Of a stretch of DNA of 64,000 nucleotides, positions 13,872 through 61,950 are shown one piece after another. The stretch lies in assembly GCA_963663545.1 (NCBI GenBank), contig OY760505.1, positions 224,001 to 288,000 of the forward strand. The letters run 5' to 3'. Within the stretch, counting starts at the first letter, position 1, and each line of letters begins with the position of its first letter. Under the pieces are notes generated by a model. It did no database searches. It was not told the DNA's origin and saw only the letters and a list, made by a program, of their open reading frames with translations. The DNA comes from Candidatus Delongbacteria bacterium. Lineage in GTDB: Bacteria; CAIWAD01. A program made the translations under genes and the position numbers.

Positions 13872-14108
13872 GTGTGAAAACCTGTCTGCTATCGATGCTA
13901 CCCGTGGCCCGTTTCACGCAGAGAATCAGTCTGCTCCACCGAAGCGGGGACCCGCGCTCCTCCTGAAATCGCCCACTGGCCGGCTTTTCGGCGTGGACGA
14001 AGCGCAAAGACATTGCAAGATAAAGAGTTAGCCCGGTACTTCCAATGTCGGCAGTGGAATGCTGGCGCAATGCCTTACATTTATTCCCAACAAAGGCAGG
14101 AAATCGGT

Positions 14109-16079
14109 ATGAACAACAGCAAGAAAACGCGCGGGCTGAGCCCCGACGCCTATCGTGTCATGGATGGACGTGGCTATCAGCCCTATGTCCCGCCCGAAAC
14201 TAGCATGCGCGAGTTCACCCTGCGAGCGCTGGTGCTGGGAGCCATTCTGGGCATCGTTTTTGGTGCCGCCAACGCTTACCTGGGCTTGAAAGTGGGCATG
14301 ACGGTCACGGCCTCCATTCCCGTCAGCGTAATCTCGATGGCGCTTCTGCGGGGCCTGTTCAAGCGTGGTACAATTCTTGAGAACAACCTGGTGCAAACCG
14401 TGGGCAGTTCGGGCGAAAGCCTGGCGGCCGGTGTGGTCTTCACCATTCCCGCGTTGATTCTCATGGGCGAGAATCCGCGCATCCTCACCGTCTTCCTCGT
14501 GGCCGCCCTGGGCGGATTGATGGGCGTCTTCATGATGATTCCCCTCCGGCGCTGGCTGATCGTGCGCGAGCACGGCGCCTTGCCCTATCCCGAGGGAACC
14601 GGTTGCGCGGAAGTGCTGGTGGCAGGCGAGGAGGGCGGAGGCAAAGCCAAGGCCGTCGCGGGTGGCGTTATTACGGGCTTCCTCTACAAACTGCTGATGG
14701 ATTCCCACGCCTTTGCGCTCTGGAGTGATGCGCCCGAGTGGACCTTGCGAAAACTGAAAACCGCCGTCGGCATGGACGCGCTGCCTTCGCTGCTGGGCGT
14801 CGGCTTCATTATCGGTCCGCGCATCGCCGGTTGGATGTTGGCGGGCGGTGCCCTGGGCTGGCTGGTGCTCATTCCTCTCTTCGGACTGATCGGCCAGGGT
14901 TTGACCACGCCGCTCTATCCGGCCAGCGTTCCCATAGCGGAAATGGGCCCCGGTTCCATCTGGAGCAGCTACATCCGTTACATCGGCGCCGGCGCCGTGA
15001 CCCTGGGCGGTTTGATCAGCCTGGCACGTAACCTGCCGGCCATGTTCAGCGGATTCGCCGCTTTTATCAAGCAGCTCAGTACTAAGACTCCGCGAGTGAA
15101 GGCGCAGACGGACTCCGCCTCTGTACAGCGCACGGACCGCGACTTGCCCCTCAAACTGGTGCTCGGTGGCTGCCTGGCAGTGGCCCTTTGCCTGTGGCTG
15201 ATTCCGGCCATGCACCTGGGATTGAGCGGTGCGCTGCTGGTGGTGCTCTTCACCTTCTTTTTCACGGTGGTCGCCAGCCGGGTTGTGGGTCTGGTGGGAG
15301 GTAGCAGCCTGCCGGTTTCCGGCATGACCATTGCCGCGCTCCTGGGCACCAGTCTGGCCTTTGCCGCAGTGGGCTTCACGGGCACACTTGCCAAGGTGGC
15401 TGCGCTGACGGTGGGTGCCGTGGTCTGTGTGGGAATTTCCACCGCCGGGGATATCAGCCAGGATCTGAAAACCGGCTTCCTGCTTGGTGCGACACCGCGC
15501 CGCCAGCAAATGGGTGAAATCGTCGGCGTGCTTTCCAGCGCCATTTTCATCGGTCTGATCATCTATCTGCTGCACGAAGCCTTCGGCATTGGTTCCCGCG
15601 AGCTCTCAGCTCCGCAGGCCACACTGATGAAGCTGGTGGTCGACGGTGTGCTGGACGGCAATCTGCCCTGGACACTGGTCTTCGTGGGGGCTGCTATTTC
15701 GCTGGTTGTCGAGCTGCTGGGCGTCAACAGTCTGCCCTTTGCGGTCGGTCTTTATCTGCCCATGAGCCTCTCGGTCCCGGTAATGCTGGGCGGTAGCATG
15801 CGTTGGCTGATGGAGCGTCACCCGAAGCGCAGTGAGGAAGACAAGCGCCAGGGACGCGAACGCGGAGTGCTATTGGCCAGCGGCCTTATCGCAGGTGAGG
15901 CGGTGTTGGGCATGTTCATTGCCGGTTTCATTGTGTTGAAGAAGCGCCTGGAATGGGATTTTGAATTGGCCATTCCACATTTTTGGGGCGCACAGGTAGA
16001 AGGCTGGCTGGGATTCCTGTTCCTGATGGGACTGGCCGCCGTGTTCTTCTACTTGGTGCAGAAACGACATGCCGAGTGA
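14109..16079 (+). CDS. OPT-family oligopeptide transporter
   Basis: NAYLGLKVG, LPYPEG, SQDLKTG and APQATLM motifs; ATG at 14109 preceded by AGGA. Confidence 0.93.
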   Translation: MNNSKKTRGLSPDAYRVMDGRGYQPYVPPETSMREFTLRALVLGAILGIVFGAANAYLGLKVGMTVTASIPVSVISMALLRGLFKRGTILENNLVQTVGSSGESLAAGVVFTIPALILMGENPRILTVFLVAALGGLMGVFMMIPLRRWLIVREHGALPYPEGTGCAEVLVAGEEGGGKAKAVAGGVITGFLYKLLMDSHAFALWSDAPEWTLRKLKTAVGMDALPSLLGVGFIIGPRIAGWMLAGGALGWLVLIPLFGLIGQGLTTPLYPASVPIAEMGPGSIWSSYIRYIGAGAVTLGGLISLARNLPAMFSGFAAFIKQLSTKTPRVKAQTDSASVQRTDRDLPLKLVLGGCLAVALCLWLIPAMHLGLSGALLVVLFTFFFTVVASRVVGLVGGSSLPVSGMTIAALLGTSLAFAAVGFTGTLAKVAALTVGAVVCVGISTAGDISQDLKTGFLLGATPRRQQMGEIVGVLSSAIFIGLIIYLLHEAFGIGSRELSAPQATLMKLVVDGVLDGNLPWTLVFVGAAISLVVELLGVNSLPFAVGLYLPMSLSVPVMLGGSMRWLMERHPKRSEEDKRQGRERGVLLASGLIAGEAVLGMFIAGFIVLKKRLEWDFELAIPHFWGAQVEGWLGFLFLMGLAAVFFYLVQKRHAE

Positions 16080-16085
16080 TACAAA

Positions 16086-16544
16086 TCAGTCGTGTGACAC
16101 GGGGAGCTTCGGCTCCCCATTTTGTGATACAGCCGCCTCTGCGGCTGTCTTTCTCCAGGTAGGCAATAAATAGATGTGAGCGCTGACAGCCAGCACAACC
16201 ACGGCCAAAAGGAGTTGCACCCACCATGCCACTGAGACGCGCCAGCATGTGAAGGCAACGCCTCCCCAGAGCAAGAACAGACTTCCCAGCTTGTGTGATA
16301 CACTCATACCCAACCCTTGTTGATAACGTCTTAGATAAGGGCCGCACAATCGGTTGTGATACAGCCAATGGCTGAAACGACGGGAGGATCGTGCAAAACA
16401 GGCAGCAGCCAGTAGCAGAAAGGGTGTAGTAGGGAGCAGCGGCAAGAAGATCCCCAGGAAACCAAGAGCGACACAGAGGCCGCCAAGGGTGATAAGCGAG
16501 ATACGCAGCAAGCGGGAGTCTGTAATACGAGGAGGGTTTTTCAT
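16086..16544 (-). CDS. YbaN / DUF454 family membrane protein
   Basis: GIFLPLLPTTPFLLLAAACFARSS signature. Confidence 0.9.
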   Translation of the reverse strand: MKNPPRITDSRLLRISLITLGGLCVALGFLGIFLPLLPTTPFLLLAAACFARSSRRFSHWLYHNRLCGPYLRRYQQGLGMSVSHKLGSLFLLWGGVAFTCWRVSVAWWVQLLLAVVVLAVSAHIYLLPTWRKTAAEAAVSQNGEPKLPVSHD

Positions 16545-38259: not shown

Positions 38260-41136
38260 TTATTTCCGCCAGAAATTATCACAGGCGCGCAGAAGCTCGC
38301 GTTCCTGGTAAAAGACCTTCGACGGCGCGCCAATACTGCCTGTAAACTGCTCGCCGTAGCGTTTTTGTATGACGCGTTTGTCCAGCAGTAGAAAGATGCC
38401 GCGATCTTGCTCGTGGCGAATCAGTCGGCCGCTGCCCTGACGAAAACGTATCACGGCTTCAGGCACACTGTACTCCATGAAGCTGTTGCGACCGCTGCGA
38501 TCCAGCGCCTCCATGCGCGCGGCTACCATCGGCTCGCTGGGGACGGCGAAAGGCAACTTGGTCATGACCAGTAGCTGAAGCGCATCACCGGGCACATCCA
38601 CGCCTTCCCAGAAGGAATCGGTACCCAGCAGAATCGCGTTGCCCGCCTCGCGGAAGCGGCGCAGGATCTCATGACGCGGACCGTCCATGCCTTGCGCCAA
38701 CAGAGGCGTCTGCCGGTAATCCAGCCGCGCAAGGAGCTCCTCGTAGGTGCGGTTGAGCAAGCCGTAGCTGGTAAACAGCACCAGAGTTCCCTTTTGGAAA
38801 GAGGTCGCCAGCTCACCCAGCAGCTCCGCCAGCTGAGCCGCGTAGGCCCAGGCATTTTTGCCACTGGGCTCAGGCAGCCAGTTGGGAATGAAAAAGCGCA
38901 GTTGCCGCTCCAGGTCAAAGGGGCTGCCGTAGACGCGACACTCTACGGGACGCTCCTGCTGATTCAGACCGGTGCTGCCCAGGAAATAGTCGAAGCTGCC
39001 GTCCACGGCGAGGGTGGCGCTCACCAGCAGAAGCGAGCTGAGACGCGAATAAAGCTTGGCGGCGAGTTGACGCCCCAGGTCCAGCGGACAACGGAAGAAG
39101 GTAGTCTCGTAGCTGACCGGGTGCACCTCGTACCAGCAAACCTCGTCAGCGCCTTCGTAGGCAGCCAACTCGTTTTCGAGAGTGCAAGCCTCCAGCACCT
39201 GACCGCCCAGACTGTGGAACTCGCCCTCGACCTCCGGATGCGCATCGCGGAAATCGGCAGGCAACTCCTCCAGCAGACGCGTGGTTTGCTCTATGGCGCG
39301 CTTGAGCCGCGGCAGGTACTGGTCCAGTTCCTGTTGCAGCGCGTAATACATGCGCAGCGGGTTTTCCTCGGGCGTGTAGCGTTGCTTCTGGGTGAAGCGC
39401 GTGCGTGCAATCTGCTCAGCCCAGCGCTCACGTTGTCCCTCAATCAATTGCTCGCGCAGGCTGCTTAGCGGCTCATCGTAGGCGGCCAGCGCTTCGGCGC
39501 ACTCCTCCAGGCTGTGTATCACCGTATCACGCGTTGCGCCTTCCGGCAAGCCCGTCAGCAGACGACTGCGCAGTTGACGAAGCAGACCACGTCCGTCACC
39601 AGGACTGTAGAGCGCGCGAGTGCGGTTCTGCAGCATGCCGAAACTGAAGCCCTTGCGCAGATGCCTCTCGGCGCAAGCCTGCAGATTGTGCGCCTCGTCC
39701 AGCACCAGGCACGAATACTCGCCCAGCACACGGCCTTCGACCTCCAGATCCGAAAGCACCAGGCTGTGATTCACCACCAGCAGGTGCGCATCGGCTGCCT
39801 GGCGGCGTGCGCGATTGACAAAACAACGCTCGCTGGCCCGGCATCGCGGGTTGGCGCAATGTTGGCTCTCGCTGCGCAGCTGCGCCCACAGAGCGGGCGC
39901 GTTGCGATAATGGAAGCCGACACACTCTTCCACATCACCCGTGCGTGTCTGCGCCAGCCAGACCACTAGCGGTAGCAGTTTCAGCCGATCCTTGACGCTC
40001 AGACGGTCCTGGGCCTCCTCCAGCAGACGTTGCCAGCGCTGGCCGCAGATGTAATTGCCGCGCCCCTTCAGCAATACCGCCTTCAGCGGACCGCGTAACA
40101 GGCGTCCCAGGCGTGGAATGTCCTCGCGAAAGAGCTGATCCTGCAAATTGCGTGTGTGTGTGGAAATCACAACTCCGCGCTCGCCCTGTGATACAAGCTC
40201 GCGTCCGCGCAGAATGGCGGGCACCAGATACGCAAAGGATTTGCCAGTACCCGTAGCGGCTTCGGCAGCCAGGAATCCCGGCGTTGCCTGCCAGCCCAGC
40301 GTGCGCGCCGCCTCCCGGGCCAACTCGACTTGAGCCGGGCGCAGCGTGAAACCGGGAAGAGCTTCCTGCAACAGGCCTGTATCACCGAACCAGTCGTCCA
40401 TTGAAGCGGAGTCTTCTCCCTCCAAGTCCGCCTTGTGATACACGTTACCCGTCGTCTCGGGCAGAAAGCGGGCAAAGTCCTCCGGACCGCCGTGCTGACG
40501 ATAGACTTCGTAAGCGCCAGCGCAAAGAGTCTCGAGCACATCGCCTGTAGCACGCGTCAGAATCACCAGCTCGCGCAATTGCACCAGCGGAAGTCCGCGT
40601 AACACGCGCAGCAAATGCAGAAGCAGCTCGGCAGTGGCGGCTGCATCGTCGCCAGCGCGATGCGCCTTGTCCAGGTTGATATCAAACCAACCGGCCAGTT
40701 CCGACAGACGATGATTGCTTACCGTCGGCAATAGTGTCTGCGCCAGCGGAACCGTGTCGACGGCCAGCAGCGGCGCTTCATAGGCCAACCCTAGCCGCTT
40801 GCACCAGCGCGTCAGCATGCCCAGGTCAAAGGCGATGTTGTGGGCCACAACTGGCGCTTCACCCAGGAAATCCAGAAAGTCGGGCAGGACTTCTTCGATG
40901 CGTCGTGCATCACGCACCATGCCAGGCTTGATACCCGTTAGTTTCGTGATACGCGGCGGAATGGCCGTCTGCGGATGAACCAGCTGATTGAAGCGCGCCT
41001 CTTCTTCGCCGTTGCGGTAACGCACCGCGCCGATCTCGATGATTTCGCAGTCGTCATCAAGCCCGGTGGTCTCCAGGTCGAAGCAGACAAAGGTGGACAG
41101 TCCAGTGGCGGCCAGCAGCTCGCGCAGTTCCCTCAT
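38260..41136 (-). CDS. DnaQ-like 3'-5' exonuclease fused to DinG-family helicase
   Basis: FDLETTG, HNIAFD and HRAGDD exonuclease motifs; ATGTGKS, LDEAH and QGSGRLIR helicase motifs; Cys cluster. Confidence 0.92.
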   Translation of the reverse strand: MRELRELLAATGLSTFVCFDLETTGLDDDCEIIEIGAVRYRNGEEEARFNQLVHPQTAIPPRITKLTGIKPGMVRDARRIEEVLPDFLDFLGEAPVVAHNIAFDLGMLTRWCKRLGLAYEAPLLAVDTVPLAQTLLPTVSNHRLSELAGWFDINLDKAHRAGDDAAATAELLLHLLRVLRGLPLVQLRELVILTRATGDVLETLCAGAYEVYRQHGGPEDFARFLPETTGNVYHKADLEGEDSASMDDWFGDTGLLQEALPGFTLRPAQVELAREAARTLGWQATPGFLAAEAATGTGKSFAYLVPAILRGRELVSQGERGVVISTHTRNLQDQLFREDIPRLGRLLRGPLKAVLLKGRGNYICGQRWQRLLEEAQDRLSVKDRLKLLPLVVWLAQTRTGDVEECVGFHYRNAPALWAQLRSESQHCANPRCRASERCFVNRARRQAADAHLLVVNHSLVLSDLEVEGRVLGEYSCLVLDEAHNLQACAERHLRKGFSFGMLQNRTRALYSPGDGRGLLRQLRSRLLTGLPEGATRDTVIHSLEECAEALAAYDEPLSSLREQLIEGQRERWAEQIARTRFTQKQRYTPEENPLRMYYALQQELDQYLPRLKRAIEQTTRLLEELPADFRDAHPEVEGEFHSLGGQVLEACTLENELAAYEGADEVCWYEVHPVSYETTFFRCPLDLGRQLAAKLYSRLSSLLLVSATLAVDGSFDYFLGSTGLNQQERPVECRVYGSPFDLERQLRFFIPNWLPEPSGKNAWAYAAQLAELLGELATSFQKGTLVLFTSYGLLNRTYEELLARLDYRQTPLLAQGMDGPRHEILRRFREAGNAILLGTDSFWEGVDVPGDALQLLVMTKLPFAVPSEPMVAARMEALDRSGRNSFMEYSVPEAVIRFRQGSGRLIRHEQDRGIFLLLDKRVIQKRYGEQFTGSIGAPSKVFYQERELLRACDNFWRK

Positions 41137-47085: not shown

Positions 47086-49699
<2,614 letters not shown>

Positions 49700-49812
49700 G
49701 CTTCCTCCTTTGCGCTTTGAAGGAGAAGATAAATCATCCCACCCTTCTACATCGCGATCGGAATCGCCAGACAGCGCCGCTCAACAGGTTCTTACTCCCC
49801 CCCCCCACTCTT

Positions 49813-49860
49813 ATCGCTACCGGTATCGGTATCGGGATCGACTCCAAGGGTGTCGGACCG
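49813..49860. repeat. (ATCGGT)n hexamer tract plus short dispersed repeat
   Basis: 49825-49860 matches 61601-61636 at 28/36 positions by manual alignment. Confidence 0.65.
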
Positions 49861-50008
49861 TGATTCCAAGCTAGCGCAGCCTCAGACAGTGAAATCAGGA
49901 GTGGGATGTATCACAGCATGATCGTGATACACGACAAATGGGACGTGCAATGAAGAGCTGGAAAGTAGGTGCGGCGTGATTCCTGCACCCAGTCCAAATC
50001 TGTAATAC

Positions 50009-50069: not shown

Positions 50070-50972
50070 CTAACGCACCAGCACCATCTTGCGGGTCTCC
50101 GTCAGCCGACCCGACTGCAGGCGGTAGAAATAGGTACCGCTGGGCAGGTTGGCCGCGTCGAAGGACACCGTGTGCTGCCCGCTCTCCATCAAACCGTTCG
50201 CCAGCGTGCTCACCAACGAACCATTCAGGTTGTAGACCTTCAGCTGAGTCATCTCGGTCTCGGGCAAGCTGAAGCTGATGGCGGTAGTGGGGTTGAAGGG
50301 GTTCGGATAGTTCTGGCTCAGGCCAAAGCTACCAGCGACCGGATCGGCGGAGGCTACTGGAGGTGCAGCAGGTAGGCCCTCGAGGGTGACGCTGTAGGCG
50401 ATCTCGTCGGGGAAATCGGTACCGTAGCCGAAGAGACCCAGCAGCAGCCAGTACTGACCGGCATTCAGGGTGATATCGTAGCTAACGATGCCGTCGATTG
50501 ACTCGTACTCAGAGCTCAAGTCGTAGCCCGGAACTGAACAGTCCAAAGTACCCACGCTGTTGCCATAAACGGTAGCGTAGAATGGGATCACGGTTTCCGT
50601 CTCGGCGTAGACGGTCAGCGTGGTGGTTTCGGTCAAAGTGATCTCGTACCAGTCCAGGTCGCGGAAGTTGTTGCCACTACTGGTAACGTAGGTGAACAAG
50701 GTGCCACAGATGTGGGCGTATGCCGGCTGTGCCATGTAAGGAATGGAGTTGCATGCGCCGTTTTGATCCGCGACTGGATCACTGTGCGGAGGCAGGTTTT
50801 CCAGGAAGGCGCCGTCGCAGCTCAGATCACGCGGTCCAGGAATGCAAGCCGCCGTCGGGGCGGGCGTGTAACCAGCCGGAGCCTGTACAGCGGAGGTTGA
50901 AGAAGCGAGGTTGGCGTTGGCGTTTAGTGAGAGGGCACAGGCCAGACAAGTGACGATGAGCATACGGTTCAT
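50070..50972 (-). CDS. Secreted protein with T9SS type A C-terminal sorting domain
   Basis: Signal peptide MNRMLIVTCLACALSLNANA; DLDWYEI (PPC-like) segment; QNYPNPFNPTT...LPSGTYFYRL...KMVLVR. Confidence 0.85.
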   Translation of the reverse strand: MNRMLIVTCLACALSLNANANLASSTSAVQAPAGYTPAPTAACIPGPRDLSCDGAFLENLPPHSDPVADQNGACNSIPYMAQPAYAHICGTLFTYVTSSGNNFRDLDWYEITLTETTTLTVYAETETVIPFYATVYGNSVGTLDCSVPGYDLSSEYESIDGIVSYDITLNAGQYWLLLGLFGYGTDFPDEIAYSVTLEGLPAAPPVASADPVAGSFGLSQNYPNPFNPTTAISFSLPETEMTQLKVYNLNGSLVSTLANGLMESGQHTVSFDAANLPSGTYFYRLQSGRLTETRKMVLVR

Positions 50973-51047
50973 TCTAAATCCTTCCTTCTCCCCCAGGGGC
51001 CGCCTGAGGTATGTTTGATGTTGCATTGCCAATTCGCCAGCCGCAGT

Positions 51048-51063
51048 GGCAAAGGGTGTGCCA
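51048..51063 (-). promoter_or_regulatory. Sigma54 -24/-12 promoter for the T9SS cargo gene
   Basis: Minus strand TGGCAC-ACCCT-TTGCC about 75 bp upstream of ATG 50972. Confidence 0.75.
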
Positions 51064-51174
51064 CGAATTTCAATCACCGGATATTACACTATTTAGGCCC
51101 ATTCTTTACTCGTGCCGAGTCGCAATTTTGCCCGATTTTGAACACTTCCAAGCATACTGACAGATTTCCTGTAT

Positions 51175-51198
51175 AAAACCCCGCCGTTGGGCGGGGGC
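51175..51198 (-). terminator. Intrinsic terminator
   Basis: Minus strand CCCCGCC-CAAC-GGCGGGG-TTTT. Confidence 0.7.
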
Positions 51199-51249
51199 TC
51201 TGGAAGCTTAATTGATTGGCTAGTGGACCGATTCGCGTTGAGGGCGAGC

Positions 51250-52014
51250 TTATTTAAGTAGCATCACCTTCTGGATTGCACTTTCATGCGGCGTGCTCAC
51301 TTTGATCAAGTATAAACCGCTGGCAAGATCTGCGGCTGAGAAAGCGTACTGGTTCTCGCCGGCAGTGCACTCCTCGTCCAGCAGCAGCCGTACACGCTGT
51401 CCGCACAGATTAAAGACCTCAAGACGCGTGCGGGCCGATGCGGGCTGCGCCCAGCGCACAAGGGTCGTTGGATTGAAAGGATTAGGATAGTTGTCGTGTA
51501 ACACCAGCGACCCGGGTATCACGGCCTGTTCCTTCACTCCCGAGGAAGTCAGGCCCAGCGCGGTCGATAAATAGTCGACGGCGCTCTCCGGCGTGTACTA
51601 GTGCAGCGAGAGAGCCGTGATACGACACTCGAAGGGCTCGTCGACCCACACTCCGGCAACGCGGCCATTGTTGTCGTCGCTGGTCTGCCAGACGCAGGCC
51701 TCGTAGCCCTCTTGCAGATAGTCCTCAGCCATGGGAGCTAAAGCGATGACCAGTGAATCGGGATTCTGGGCAGCCACCAGCTCTTCGTCTATCACCAGAT
51801 TCGTTCCAGAGGGTGAGTGTGTCCCACCCGCGCGGATGCCTCTCAGAAGCTCCGTGAGGAGACCATACTCGGTGGGAGTCTCGTACACGAGCATTACCGG
51901 CTCCCCGGCTCCCAACTCCAAGTAGTCCATCCCAGGAATGCTGCCGGGCAAACACCCCTGTCCCGTCACCAGCACGCGTCCGCCAATGCGTGTGATGGGA
52001 TTGAGCTGCAGCAC
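51250..52014 (-). pseudogene. 5'-truncated T9SS-CTD protein gene with in-frame TAG
   Basis: ORFs 51598-52014 and 51250-51537 share a frame across one TAG (51598-51600); NYPNPFNP CTD; no signal peptide; 5' end abuts the repeat array. Confidence 0.75.
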
Positions 52015-52960
52015 AGCTGGTCAGCAAGCGATTTCACTCAGCTTTCTGCAACCATCTCTTGCAGGCAACTGCAATAGCCTGTACATCGCGGCCTCTTCGC
52101 GAGCATGGCTCAATTGGTAGAGTGCCAGCTTCCCAGTTCCTCTGCTGCACGCGGACGCGTAGCGTCTGAGGTGCAGCATAGCTGGTCAGCAAGCGATTTC
52201 ACTCAGCTTTCTGCAACCATCTCTTGCAGGCAACTGCAATAGCCTGTACATCGCGGCCTCTTCGCGAGCATGGCTCAATTGGTAGAGTGCCAGCTTCCCA
52301 GTTCCTCTGCTGCACGCGGACGCGTAGCGTCTGAGGTGCAGCACAGCTGGTCAGCAAGCGATTTCACTCAGCTTTCTGCAACCATCTCTTGCAGGCAACT
52401 GCAATAGCCTGTACATCGCGGCCTCTTCGCGAGCATGGCTCAATTGGTAGAGTGCCAGCTTCCCAGTTCCTCTGCTGCACGCGGACGCGTAGCGTCTGAG
52501 GTGCAGCACAGCTGGTCAGCAAGCGATTTCACTCAGCTTTCTGCAACCATCTCTTGCAGGCAACTGCAATAGCCTGTACATTGTGACCCACTTGCGAGCG
52601 TAACTCAGTTGGTAGAGTGCCAGCTTCCCAGTTCCTCTGCTGCACGCGGACGCGTAGCGTCTGAGGTGCAGCACAGCTGGTCAGCAAGCGATTTCACCCG
52701 GCTTTCTGCAACTATCTCTTGCAGGCAACTGCAATAGCCTGTACATCGCGGCCTCTTCGCGAGCATGGCTCAATTGGTAGAGTGCCAGCTTCCCAGTTCC
52801 TCTGCTGCACGCGGACGCGTAGCGTCTGAGGTGCAGCACAGCTGGTCAGCAAGCGATTTCACTCAGCTTTCTGCAACCATCTCTTGCAGGCAACTGCAAT
52901 AGCCTGTACATTGTGACCCACTTGCGAGCGTAACTCAGTTGGTAGAGTGCCAGCTTCCCA
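52007..52960 (+). repeat. 165-bp tandem array of promoter-like sequence + tRNA-Gly 5' half + 44-nt hairpin (5 interrupted copies plus the intact terminal gene)
   Basis: TCAGCAAGCG recurs at 52021, 52186, 52351, 52516, 52681 and 52846; tRNA 5' ends at 52099, 52264, 52429, 52594, 52759 and 52924. Confidence 0.95.
52884..52912 (+). promoter_or_regulatory. Sigma70-like promoter of tRNA-Gly (repeated in each array unit)
   Basis: TTGCAG-17 nt-TACATT ending 11 nt before the tRNA. Confidence 0.6.
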
Positions 52961-52996
52961 AGCTGGTCGTCGCGGGTTCGAGCCCCGTCGCTCGCT
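52924..52996 (+). tRNA. tRNA-Gly (anticodon CCC), CCA not encoded
   Basis: Cloverleaf: GCGAGCG/CGCTCGC acceptor, ACTC/GAGT D stem, CCAGC-TTCCCAA-GCTGG anticodon arm, GGTTCGAGCC T loop, U73. Confidence 0.95.
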
Positions 52997-53004
52997 GTTT
53001 GTCA

Positions 53005-53183
53005 GCTTCGCTGACAACTCGCCGAAGACACCCGAGGGCGTCTTCGCCACAAAAGCAGCTGCCGTTCTCCGCTACGCGGAGAACAAACTCATCAGGGAAC
53101 ATGCTTCGCTGACAACTCGCCGAAGACACCCGAGGGCGTCTTCGCCACAAAAGCAGCTGCCGTTCTCCGCTACGCGGAGAACA
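53005..53183. repeat. Two 81-bp direct repeats made of short hairpins
   Basis: 53005-53085 equals 53103-53183; contains CGAAGACACCCGAGGGCGTCTTCG and GTTCTCCGCTACGCGGAGAAC. Confidence 0.9.
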
Positions 53184-53217
53184 GATCCATCGAAGTATGT
53201 GAACCGTGTCTGGGTTT

Positions 53218-53275
53218 GTGCCAGCTTCCCTGTTCCTCTGCTGCACGCGGACGCGCAGCGTCTGAGGTGCAGCAC
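53218..53275 (+). repeat. Orphan copy of anticodon-arm fragment plus the 44-nt hairpin
   Basis: GTGCCAGCTTCCC-T-GTTCCTCTGCTGCACGCGGACGCGCAGCGTCTGAGGTGCAGCAC. Confidence 0.9.
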
Positions 53276-53281
53276 GGCTCT

Positions 53282-53315
53282 CCGATACCGATACCGATAC
53301 CGATACCGATATCGA
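53282..53315. repeat. (CCGATA)5 hexamer microsatellite
   Basis: Direct reading. Confidence 0.9.
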
Positions 53316-53321
53316 TGGGAG

Positions 53322-54320
53322 CTACTCCGCGCTGTGTTTTCTCAGGCTGCCGGCGACATCGCCTTTCCATTCTGCGCTCGTCTCAAGCGGACAGATCTCG
53401 GGAGGAGTTTCGTACCAGCGCTGCATGCCTTTGCGCCAATGACACCAGCTGGTTTCCGGGCCAAAATCGTGGGTGCTGAGCACGCAGGTTTCGCCCTGCG
53501 GGCTGAGGGCGTGTATCACGACTGATCCCAGAAAGCCCTCGCGCAGCCGGGCCATATCGGCCATCGCTTCGTGACAGGCCTCCTCCACACTCAGGCCGAA
53601 ACGCATGGCGGCCACCACTGCGCGCGCCGTGCCCGCTCGAATCGTCATCTCGCCGGTGTGGGTGCAGGCACAGGCTCCGTAGCGCTGATCGACGTAGAGG
53701 CCCGCGCCAATGACCGGCGAATCCCCCAGACGGCCAGGATACTTGTGCGCCCAACCGCTGGTGCTGGTGCCTCCTGCCAGCTGGCCTTGCTTGTTAATGC
53801 AGAGCAGAACCGTGGTGCCCTTGGCCATGTGCAGGCTCTCGCGCGGCCAGCAATAGGGCGCTAGCGGCTCACGACCAGAAAGCGCATTGCTCAGTCGTGC
53901 GCTCTGACGCTGTCGATGCCAGACTTCGCTTTCGTCGCTAAGCATCTCCGCTTCGGCAGCACCCACTTCACGGGCAAATCGTGCAGCACCTTCACCCACC
54001 AGCATCACGTGAGGCAATTTCTCCATGACACGGCGTGCTACACTGACCGCATGCAGGTAGCCGGAAAGCGCTCCCACACTGCCGCAGCAGCGTGTTACGC
54101 CATCCATGATGGCCGCATCGCACTCCACCACTCCTGCCAGATTGGGGTAACCGCCATAACCGACGGTACGCACAGCAGGATCGGCCTCCACGGGATGAAT
54201 GCCCGCCTCAACAACGTCCAAGGCGCTCTTGCCAGCCTCCAGGGCCAGTACAGCGGCATCCATGCCCACGCGTCCTTCGCCATTCATCAGTACCAGCACA
54301 ACAAGCTCCCTTGCCTGCAA
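53322..54320 (-). CDS. Ntn-hydrolase: isoaspartyl peptidase / glycosylasparaginase family
   Basis: VGYGGYP, CDAAIMDG, KG|TT autocleavage site, TSTSGWAHKYPGRLGDSPVIGAG; start uncertain. Confidence 0.9.
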   Translation of the reverse strand: MQARELVVLVLMNGEGRVGMDAAVLALEAGKSALDVVEAGIHPVEADPAVRTVGYGGYPNLAGVVECDAAIMDGVTRCCGSVGALSGYLHAVSVARRVMEKLPHVMLVGEGAARFAREVGAAEAEMLSDESEVWHRQRQSARLSNALSGREPLAPYCWPRESLHMAKGTTVLLCINKQGQLAGGTSTSGWAHKYPGRLGDSPVIGAGLYVDQRYGACACTHTGEMTIRAGTARAVVAAMRFGLSVEEACHEAMADMARLREGFLGSVVIHALSPQGETCVLSTHDFGPETSWCHWRKGMQRWYETPPEICPLETSAEWKGDVAGSLRKHSAE

Positions 54321-54334
54321 GCGTCACTTATGTA

Positions 54335-55303
54335 TCACACCCGCCCACGAATCAGCAGAAAGAGAAAGAAAGGGCCACCCAACAGCGCCGTTAGAATACC
54401 CACCGGCATTTCCGCAGGAGCCAGCAGACTACGGGCCAGTGTATCACAGGCCACCAGAAACAGGCCACCGGCAGGAAACACCCAAGCACCAAGGCGCGCG
54501 TGCGTCGGCCCCAGCAGAAGACGCAGAATATGCGGCACCATCATGCCCACAAAGGCGATGGGACCGCAGACGGCCACCACCGCGCCCACAATCAGCGCAC
54601 TGGTTCCCAGCACAACGCGTCTCACACGGCGCAGATTCACGCCACGACTGGCGGCCAGCTCCTCGCCCGTGCACAACAAATCCAGCTCTCGGTGATGCAG
54701 TAGTAGCACAACGGATCCGCCAAGCACCAGCAAGGCCGTGAAGATCAGCTGCACCGTACCCGGAGCCGTGATACTCCCCATCAGCCAGCGCAGCAGACGA
54801 AAGGTCTGGGTGTAATCCGCCAGATATTGGGCCAGCATGACCAGGCTGCCGCAAATGAAATTGAGCGCCACACCCGCTAGAAGCAGACTGTGCTGCGTCA
54901 GTCCACCGGCAGCGCGTCCCACCAGCAGCACCAGGCCCATGGTGGCAAGCGCTCCCCCCATTGCGCCCGCAACACTCAAGCCTCCTGCCAGGCCGACTCC
55001 CAGGCCGAAAAGCGTCACCATCGCTGCGCCCAGCGACGCACCGGAAGCCAGTCCCAGTGTGTAGGGTGTGGCGAGCGGGTTGCGAAACAGCGCCTGGTAG
55101 ACCATGCCCGCGACCGCCAGGCCGCCTCCAGCCAGAAAGGCCAACAACACGCGCGGCAAACGCAGGTGCAAGAGGATCATCTGCTCATAGCCCGTGCTCT
55201 GCCAGAATGCGGGGGAAATCCAGGGCACACCGGCACTCACCGCCAGCAGCAGAAGAAAGGGCAACAGCACGTAGAGCAGAACCAGAGGCAGTCGCTGACT
55301 CAC
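54335..55303 (-). CDS. FecCD/BtuC-family ABC permease
   Basis: LRLPRVLL, FRNPLATPYTLG, GPIAFVGMMVPH and PVGILTALLGGPFF motifs. Confidence 0.93.
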   Translation of the reverse strand: MSQRLPLVLLYVLLPFLLLLAVSAGVPWISPAFWQSTGYEQMILLHLRLPRVLLAFLAGGGLAVAGMVYQALFRNPLATPYTLGLASGASLGAAMVTLFGLGVGLAGGLSVAGAMGGALATMGLVLLVGRAAGGLTQHSLLLAGVALNFICGSLVMLAQYLADYTQTFRLLRWLMGSITAPGTVQLIFTALLVLGGSVVLLLHHRELDLLCTGEELAASRGVNLRRVRRVVLGTSALIVGAVVAVCGPIAFVGMMVPHILRLLLGPTHARLGAWVFPAGGLFLVACDTLARSLLAPAEMPVGILTALLGGPFFLFLLIRGRV

Positions 55304-61597: not shown

Positions 61598-61950
61598 TTA
61601 ATCGGTATCGGTGCCGACTCCTTTGGAGTCGGATCGAGTCTTCTCTTCTCCCTTCGTCCTTCTGTCACTACCAGCACCAACGAATGCTTCGCCAGCCTCT
61701 CTGATCGGACGGTGATACAACCGATTGTCGGAGAGAGTGGAAGGGAAGAAGACAAAGACTAAGACTAAGAACGATACCGATACCGATACCGATAGCGATA
61801 CCGATAAAGTGTATGAGGGATCGTAACATGGGCTTCACGAATGCCTATGGACGAAGCCATGCCGCTTCGTAGAGTGACGTGTTGAGCCAGGTCCTGAAGC
61901 ATGGCTTCGTCGAGGTGTCGCGCACGAAGTGCTCGACACACCGATAGCGA
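61598..61950. repeat. Intergenic repeat cluster: opposed (ATCGGT)n/(ACCGAT)n tracts, AAGACT repeats and hairpins
   Basis: ATCGGTATCGGT at 61601; (CGATAC)n at 61772-61806; 13-bp inverted repeat 61850-61862/61899-61911; hairpin 61915-61939. Confidence 0.75.

Follow-up and report, generated by a model that had tools for sequence, protein, structure and literature searches.

A stretch of 64,000 nucleotides (nt) from the genome of a Candidatus Delongbacteria bacterium (assembly GCA_963663545.1, contig OY760505.1, positions 224,001 to 288,000; hereafter the window, with positions counted from its first letter) contains a tRNA-Gly(CCC) gene preceded by a tandem array of 165-base-pair (bp) units, each of which holds the upstream region of the tRNA, its 5' half, a 44-nt hairpin and eight further tRNA nucleotides. 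We propose, with moderate confidence, that this array is a local tandem duplication of a 3'-truncated, hairpin-disrupted tRNA copy, which grew by unequal recombination and has left one working gene at its end. We regard the array as a structural by-product and not as a selected device; its lack of function, the order of the events and the origin of the hairpin are what we infer from the evidence given below.

Organization of the array and its terminal tRNA gene

The array was delimited by Tandem Repeats Finder (TRF) at 52002-52960 (period 165, 5.8 copies, 95% matches, 0% indels, score 1739), in agreement with an earlier note on this DNA in which a 165-bp unit was said to repeat about 5.8 times. 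Read directly, each unit consists of 76 nt of upstream DNA, nt 1-37 of tRNA-Gly(CCC), the 44-nt insert and AGCTGGTC, which corresponds to tRNA nt 38-45 and forms the 3' end of each truncated unit before the next one starts; this is exactly the make-up (upstream region, nt 1-37, hairpin, nt 38-45) that the note had described. A profile built from units 1-5 matched, in an nhmmer search, the five full units, a partial sixth, a fragment at the left edge and one relic downstream of the array. The sixth unit matches the profile up to profile position 114, i.e., window position 52960 and tRNA nt 37, is free of the insert, and runs on through the T arm and the 3' acceptor strand.

All of these elements lie on the plus strand. 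The left edge of the array (52002-52022) is made of the last 13 nt of the hairpin, with one mismatch, and tRNA nt 38-45, and is joined to a pseudogene, the protein homology and the unit homology overlapping there by approximately 4 nt (TGAG). Unit 1 (52023-52187) has its 5' half at 52099-52135, its hairpin at 52136-52179 and tRNA nt 38-45 at 52180-52187, with a single private substitution at the final hairpin base. Unit 2 (52188-52352; 5' half 52264-52300, hairpin 52301-52344) and unit 3 (52353-52517; 5' half 52429-52465, hairpin 52466-52509) show no differences from each other, and unit 5 (52683-52847; 5' half 52759-52795, hairpin 52796-52839) carries three private upstream substitutions, at unit positions 16, 18 and 31. 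These four units belong to one sequence type, which we call A. Unit 4 (52518-52682; 5' half 52594-52630, hairpin 52631-52674) is of a second type, B, its upstream region and 5' half being the same as those of the intact gene, yet with the hairpin present. The upstream region of the intact gene itself (52848-52923) is also of type B. No open reading frame (ORF) of at least 80 amino acids (aa) was found inside the array, and the repeated ORFs of 30-53 aa had no support.

Only the terminal copy is called as a tRNA gene, and this is one of the grounds on which we favor duplication. ARAGORN reported it at 52924-52996 on the plus strand as Gly(ccc), without an encoded CCA and with the discriminator U73, and the Rfam tRNA model RF00005 matched it along its whole length (model positions 1-71 of 71) with 65.2 bits against a gathering score of 29 (E 4e-13), so that the claim of the earlier note that the last copy alone gives an intact tRNA-Gly(CCC) was borne out. 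It is the sole tRNA of the whole 64-kb window for Rfam and for ARAGORN with and without intron options; the search with intron options, which the note had suggested, called the intact gene alone. Its cloverleaf has a predicted folding energy of -32.7 kcal/mol. The glycine identity elements G1-C72, C2-G71, U73, C35 and C36 are all present, and position 10 is an A and not the G of the G10-Y25 consensus included in the list from which these elements were taken (PMC9976931, in the part dealing with them).

No tRNA was called in units 1-5, either by ARAGORN allowing introns of up to 1200 nt or by Rfam at E values up to 1. These units end at tRNA nt 45, and since the T arm and the 3' acceptor strand are missing, they cannot be aminoacylated or yield a tRNA; to judge from the substrate recognition of RNase P, they should not be recognized by this enzyme as pre-tRNA either. 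No Rfam family besides tRNA was found at E values up to 1 on 50500-54500 or at gathering scores on the whole window. An intron-like nature of the insert was considered and rejected in two forms. A protein-spliced intron calls for a bulge-helix-bulge, with two 3-nt bulges, a 4-bp helix between them and a complete 3' exon, and here only 8 nt of 3' exon are present and the predicted fold has no such motif, its 5' side forming a 12-nt loop and its 3' side a 1-nt bulge. A group I intron does not fit an insert of only 44 nt, and no Rfam intron family was matched on 50500-54500 at E values up to 1. No separate gene for the 3' half of a split tRNA occurs in the 64-kb window, in which there is a single tRNA match and a relic devoid of the 3' half; the trailer of the 5' half is self-paired in the predicted fold, and would have to pair with the leader of the 3' half in a split tRNA.

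Transcription signals in the array are doubtful. By eye, a promoter candidate can be recognized as TTGCAG, a 17-nt spacer and TACAT(C/T), ending 11 nt before the tRNA start. In unit 2 its -35 element lies at 52224-52229 and its -10 element (TACATC) at 52247-52252, and in the region upstream of the intact gene they lie at 52884-52889 (TTGCAG) and 52907-52912 (TACATT). A consensus promoter scan of 51900-53400 returned no sites, this candidate falling below the threshold. Its last -10 base is a C in four of the five truncated units, those of type A, and a T in the B unit and the intact gene; a C at this position should weaken a σ-70 promoter. The hairpin was rejected as a canonical intrinsic terminator, as no T run follows it, though terminators with T runs occur nearby. 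Given a hairpin without a T run in a genome that has real terminators, read-through into the real tRNA is likelier than the production of discrete small RNAs, and any unit transcripts most likely read through in this way or are degraded. The upstream region also holds the series CTGCAA, TTGCAG and CTGCAA (52210-52239, repeated in every unit), of which the middle element, the -35 candidate, can pair with either of the others, the second pairing closing on a GCAA loop. This set could be an operator, an alternative RNA structure or the product of chance.

Unit types, hairpin and the case for local duplication

Exchange within the array is indicated by the distribution of its two unit types, for which the succession is A A A B A B. 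Between the types there are 11 differences (10 transitions), confined to 27 nt between tRNA positions -12 and +15, and none of 2,000,000 random placements of the sites was equally compact. Unit 4 differs from unit 2 at 11 positions, all of them within unit positions 65-91; its first 113 nt are those of unit 6, with 0 differences, and in its other parts it agrees with the A units. Beyond the patch, no unit departs from the others save for the one private change of unit 1 and the three of unit 5. Three combinations are found, namely A patch and hairpin (units 1, 2, 3 and 5), B patch and hairpin (unit 4), and B patch and 3' half (unit 6). The mosaic requires recombination between units and, because all three combinations exist, unequal crossing-over or conversion is the economical explanation of unit 4. 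Both the clustering of the sites and the need for exchange argue for the duplication proposed here, and the latter supports the earlier note where it considered the locus a record of duplication. A deaminase-type signature in the patch was ruled out, the changes running in both directions. The A-type 5' half has A7 and A15 opposite C66 and C48 of the sole 3' half, positions at which the B type has G7 and G15. This mismatch means that the A units are not co-adapted partners of the intact gene, and we count it as a further reason to see them as products of duplication. The A type has G10, in line with the G10-Y25 feature quoted for tRNA-Gly in the same part of PMC9976931.

The insert (GTTCC...GCAGCAC) lies at tRNA position 37/38, with no tRNA bases lost. 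There are five exact copies of its 37-nt core and another with one mismatch, and 100 shuffles gave no matches. The predicted fold of the hairpin has an energy of -24.7 kcal/mol (z = -3.46; 2 of 200 shuffles as stable) and, together with the anticodon stem, it would form a longer arm of -33.1 kcal/mol (z = -3.11). Besides the array, the hairpin is found as a seventh copy in the relic (53218-53279, plus strand), which consists of tRNA nt 24-36, the hairpin and 3 nt of the 3' anticodon stem, matches profile positions 100-162 of the unit (nhmmer E 1.9e-16), belongs to a repeat family with 95% identity, and lacks the D arm, the upstream region and the 3' half. Apart from these two places, no copy was found in the 64-kb window with up to three mismatches or by profile search. 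A stem-constrained pattern of the hairpin with wildcard loops had no matches in a collection with one genome for each of 185,579 species; the window itself was unmatched as well, so the source genome may be outside that collection. No blastn match was obtained for one whole unit in phage and plasmid collections, and an inverted-repeat scan of the window for a family of similar hairpins, of the repetitive extragenic palindrome (REP) kind, gave unrelated palindromes only. An integron attC site, whose core is GTTRRRY, was dropped without a formal test, the start of the hairpin (GTTCCTC) being unlike it. Ten nt of the hairpin 5' arm recur inverted at 51974-51983, in the coding remnant, 22 nt inside the left flank. 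In a post hoc test, at least 10 nt were shared with that part of the hairpin by 36 of 4867 random 100-nt pieces of the window (p ~0.007). The match may be a clue that part of the hairpin was templated locally, and as such it adds to the case for a local event.

The surroundings of the array point in the same direction. Immediately to the left is a dead gene that breaks off where the array begins, a remnant of a type IX secretion cargo gene on the minus strand (51253-52005), of which only the last third is left. In tblastn, residues 500-747 of the 747-aa protein P0002 gave one match to 52005-51253, with 45.7% identity and E 3.7e-55, the homology ending at 52005; residues 1-499 have no match in the window, approximately 499 N-terminal codons being gone. 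An in-frame TAG stands at 51598-51600, where P0002 has a conserved tryptophan, and the Por_Secre_tail domain is found in the last 95 aa. Only three library proteins match the 138-aa ORF of the pseudogene, which is followed by an intact-looking terminator with a T run at 51196-51179. To the right, directly after the tRNA, there is a 98-bp tandem duplication on the plus strand (53005-53183; 1.8 copies, 100% matches), with three G+C-rich hairpins (fold z = -3.80), none of them with a T run, and then a third tandem repeat, the microsatellite (CCGATA) x 5.8 (53282-53316, plus strand). Three of the five tandem repeats found in the 64 kb thus fall within this 1.3-kb spacer, a concentration that we take as another argument for local duplication. 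Signs of a mobile element are missing, the hairpin occurring nowhere else in the window and the 62 distinct ORF translations covering it having no integrase, transposase or recombinase domain in Pfam; the statement of the earlier note that no integrase or transposase is visible therefore stands, and this too favors a local origin. Finally, the tRNA runs against the local gene direction. All Pfam-supported genes of the window are on the minus strand but one, an OPT transporter (14013-16079, plus strand), and the tRNA is on the plus strand. In 27 of 32 bins the plus strand has a negative GC skew (-0.034 overall), and transcription of the tRNA is probably head-on to replication. As signatures of such conflicts, a review reports indels close to where the collision occurs and a hotspot of promoter substitutions (in the part of PMC7451550 concerned with them).

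A sequence of events can be proposed. The setting is an unstable spacer, with a tRNA gene read in the direction opposite to most genes of the window. There, a single ancestral segment made of the upstream region and tRNA nt 1-45 would have gained the 44-bp quasi-palindrome between nt 37 and 38, either as a small insertion or as filler from a template-switch rearrangement. The resulting 165-bp segment, placed head-to-tail with the intact gene, would then have been expanded and partly homogenized by unequal homologous recombination and gene conversion, and a further illegitimate event may have joined the array, at its left end, to an inner part of the neighboring secreted-protein gene.

Several observations weigh against this proposal. 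Every unit has kept its complete upstream region and, with it, the best promoter candidate, and the greatest divergence among the five truncated units is 14 of 165 positions; such retention and low divergence fit either recent amplification or selection. The hairpin is inserted exactly at 37/38, the canonical intron position, and reappears in the relic with anticodon-arm flanks, which would not be expected of random filler; its sole change in the relic is in the apical loop, with the stem preserved (n = 1). As 8 nt of tRNA follow the hairpin, the insert lies inside the tRNA and not at the duplication junction, and a separate, unexplained event is needed for it, the origin of the hairpin being the weakest point of the proposal. 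The head-on orientation, in turn, is probable from skew and gene bias. The best relatives of the flanking gene are only 52-59% identical, with no tRNA nearby, and the neutrality that we infer is that of a single genome.

Alternative explanations and known systems

The retained upstream region is also what suggests that the array may be functional, each unit giving rise, from its own promoter copy, to an RNA of the 5' half and the hairpin that would act as a decoy, sponge or regulator, aimed, e.g., at an anticodon nuclease, the glycyl-tRNA synthetase or a tRNA-modifying enzyme, or the tandem promoters boosting the terminal tRNA. The long, stable arm predicted for hairpin and anticodon stem and the restriction of the relic's one hairpin change to the loop are consistent with such a role, and the repeats of the E. 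coli tyrTV locus, which give the annotated RNA RttR, show that tRNA-linked repeats can be expressed. Nevertheless, we consider it rather unlikely, since the hairpin has no T run in a genome with canonical terminators, the -10 candidate ends in C for T in four of five truncated units, the consensus scan called no promoter, no Rfam family was matched by the units at E values up to 1, no defense or nuclease partner appeared among the 14 proteins scanned with PADLOC, and the array adjoins a pseudogene in a patch of other duplications. No hairpin match was obtained in the species genomes, among which the source genome may be missing, and no tRNA at the loci scanned in relatives. In a stricter form, the five units would be independent genes for mimics of tRNA halves, with RNAs of approximately 85-90 nt that carry CCC in an internal loop of the lengthened anticodon arm, and the type B unit, with its intact -10 candidate, would then be the most active copy; this is improbable. 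It is very improbable that the array is an artefact or has an inflated copy number, a genuine locus of only one or two units having been lengthened in the assembly by several passes through a repeat loop or by the merging of strain variants. Units 2 and 3 are indeed identical, and mis-assembly may have changed how many of them there are; over 113 nt unit 4 does not differ from unit 6, and the hairpin pattern was unmatched in the genome collection, with the window itself included. A pure artefact, however, is not what the private substitutions in units 1 and 5 and the irregular succession A A A B A B suggest. The junctions at the left edge and in the relic each occur once, and at least the junction between hairpin, tRNA nt 38-45 and upstream region would not appear if it were not real.

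Two further explanations invoke mobile DNA. tRNA anticodon loops serve as integration sites of tyrosine integrases, and integration into tRNA genes usually duplicates their 3' part. The break of the array units is in the anticodon loop, with the stem arms forming an inverted repeat of the tyrosine-integrase kind, and it is conceivable that an element with its own promoter and an A-type 5' part integrated there, lost its body by deletion and left halves that were amplified. The A-type 5' half does resemble that of a different, once-functional tRNA-Gly (G10, with A7 and A15 mismatched here), and partial tRNA copies resulting from integration are well documented (PMC9897764, for the cases it describes). 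Such a footprint is unlikely, as no integrase or island gene exists in the 52 kb upstream and 11 kb downstream, the repeats are spaced by 165 bp and not by kilobases, and the 5' side is what was duplicated; besides, the A and B units show no differences over the upstream 64 nt save for the three changes of unit 5, unlike a foreign copy, and the intact gene is made of B and B with no hybrid. The hairpin might instead be a mobile palindrome, like a REP or a miniature inverted-repeat transposable element (MITE), mobilized in trans and preferring the anticodon loop of tRNA-Gly(CCC); it would have disrupted one copy of the gene, amplified afterwards, the relic being a second insertion. The array and the relic offer two contexts with a shared 13-nt left flank, the insertion point is precise with all tRNA bases kept, and the structure is a strong, imperfect palindrome. 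This origin is nonetheless quite unlikely given that no other copy exists in the 64 kb (up to three mismatches, or by profile) or among the 185,579 species genomes, no transposase was found in the ORFs of the window and no target-site duplication is present; moreover, the relic shares both flanks with the units and may be a mere fragment of one. The same results go against the inference in the earlier note of repeated insertion by a small tRNA-targeting element: the five array hairpins are identical and most sensibly taken as a single event that was inherited, no copy is found either elsewhere in the 64 kb or in the genome collection, and neither transposase nor integrase accompanies the hairpin.

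For local duplication, on the other hand, there is a precedent in the tRNA-linked array of E. coli tyrT-tyrV, which is the closest architecture that we found. As in the array described here, the tandem repeats abut the tRNA and each contains a tRNA fragment, so that contiguity with the tRNA and a tRNA piece in every unit are seen at both loci. TRF gave for tyrTV a period of 178, 3.1 copies and 95% matches, in an array that shares with tyrV the last 19 nt of this gene; the small RNA RttR is annotated within the array, and the tpr ORF at the locus. The tyrTV array is a product of unequal recombination. The two are mirror images, however, the repeats being on the 3' side in tyrTV and on the 5' side, with the upstream region, in the present locus; the tyrTV units have neither a promoter copy nor a hairpin inserted in the anticodon loop. 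The two loci are unrelated in sequence, as the Rfam scan of the present region found tRNA alone, and the likeness is only architectural. The locus adds the 5' side of the gene and the promoter region to what tRNA-linked repeats of the tyrT type cover, and no earlier report of this was found among literature abstracts; nor did a search at that level return a matching case for a bacterial array of tRNA 5' halves, for decoys made of tRNA halves, for pseudo-tRNA tandem duplications or for split tRNAs in bacteria. In organelle genomes, head-to-tail duplications leave truncated pseudo-tRNAs beside a working gene, as here, and we know of none there that has a hairpin inserted at 37/38.

Other comparisons hold in part or fail. 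As in the partial tRNAs of islands and prophages, a complete gene stands next to displaced partial copies that share an identity block (PMC9897764, for the examples given there); in island relics, however, the repeats flank kilobases of DNA and an integrase, in contrast with the five 5'-part copies at 165 bp and without integrase found here. A relic of genomic-island or prophage attachment sites was therefore ruled out, with no integrase in 62 ORFs and repeats 165 bp apart. With the split and intron-containing tRNAs of archaea the array shares the interruption at 37/38, where most tRNA introns are reported to be located (PMC4033280), and 5' halves encoded apart from the 3' half. The present host is bacterial (NAD-dependent ligase, MreB, PBP2 and flagellar genes), the insert has 44 nt and the 3' exon 8 nt; in the table of that review split tRNAs are given for archaea only, the column for Bacteria being empty, and the bacterial tRNA introns named there are group I introns with a core of approximately 100 nt (PMC4033280). 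A CRISPR array was rejected on account of the period of 165, a variable part with two homologous versions only, and the lack of cas proteins. In arrays of the ToxI kind, short RNA repeats in tandem are directly followed by a toxin gene in the same orientation; a type III toxin-antitoxin system was rejected here, the downstream asparaginase gene being on the opposite strand and the flanking proteins having no PADLOC match. As for a dispersed palindromic element, which would have many copies at unrelated sites, there were zero copies of the hairpin outside the locus, both in the 64 kb and in the species-representative collection.

Genomic surroundings and meaning of the locus

The window is core chromosome, with mreBC, pbp2, rodA, purH, purN, PorV, gltX, ligA, efp, accBC and hpt, besides an iron-type ABC transporter and flagellar genes. 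Downstream of the tRNA, the next gene encodes a protein of the asparaginase family (53322-54320, on the strand opposite to the tRNA). When this adjacent gene was used as a query for the locus in relatives, 80 loci were retrieved, of which the first ten were 38-59% identical and came from uncultured metagenome-assembled genomes and candidate phyla (Fermentibacteria, WOR-3 and Eisenbacteria); ARAGORN found no tRNA at the nine of these ten loci to which it was applied. Apart from generic matches to DinG models, no defense or anticodon-nuclease gene was seen among the 14 proteins scanned with PADLOC. These matches, to type IV CRISPR DinG models, were given by a 958-aa protein in which an RNase T-type exonuclease is fused to a DinG helicase (38260-41136, minus strand); it is 11 kb away, has no cas genes nearby and is probably a housekeeping DinG.

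Other repeated words occur in the window. The octamer GTGATACA is its commonest 8-mer, with 56 occurrences in 64 kb (24 on the plus and 32 on the minus strand) against 0.89 expected from shuffles, in coding and non-coding DNA alike (e.g., 205-212, 16076-16363, 47787-48556 and 49907-49931); it has no extended consensus save for a scarcity of A just before it, and none lies in the array. It looks like a highly iterated genome-wide word, comparable to uptake sequences or HIP1. At 49907-49931, in the spacer upstream of hpt, there is an inverted pair, TGTATCAC, 9 nt and GTGATACA. Microsatellites of the hexamer (CGATAC)n are found in three separate intergenic regions (49809-49842, 53282-53316 and 61772-61806), the pattern of two such units matching 14 times against 0.08 expected, and the hexamer shares GATAC with the octamer.

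The locus is real and unusual in form, and its surroundings speak of local instability and decay. The array is most likely the debris of DNA duplication at an unstable spot, and not a proven new RNA system; a small-RNA function of its tRNA halves finds no support in the evidence, and we hold it to be improbable. Should the units be expressed as stable RNAs, they would be, to our knowledge, the first genomically encoded genes for tRNA 5' halves in a bacterium, and the biology of tRNA-half mimics would become genetically testable. The locus also serves as a warning for annotation and assembly, with 1 kb of near-identical 165-bp units beside a tRNA. If the neutral reading is true, it would illustrate cleanly, in nature, that a tRNA gene lying on the "wrong" strand can shed truncated copies by duplication, template switching and unequal exchange.

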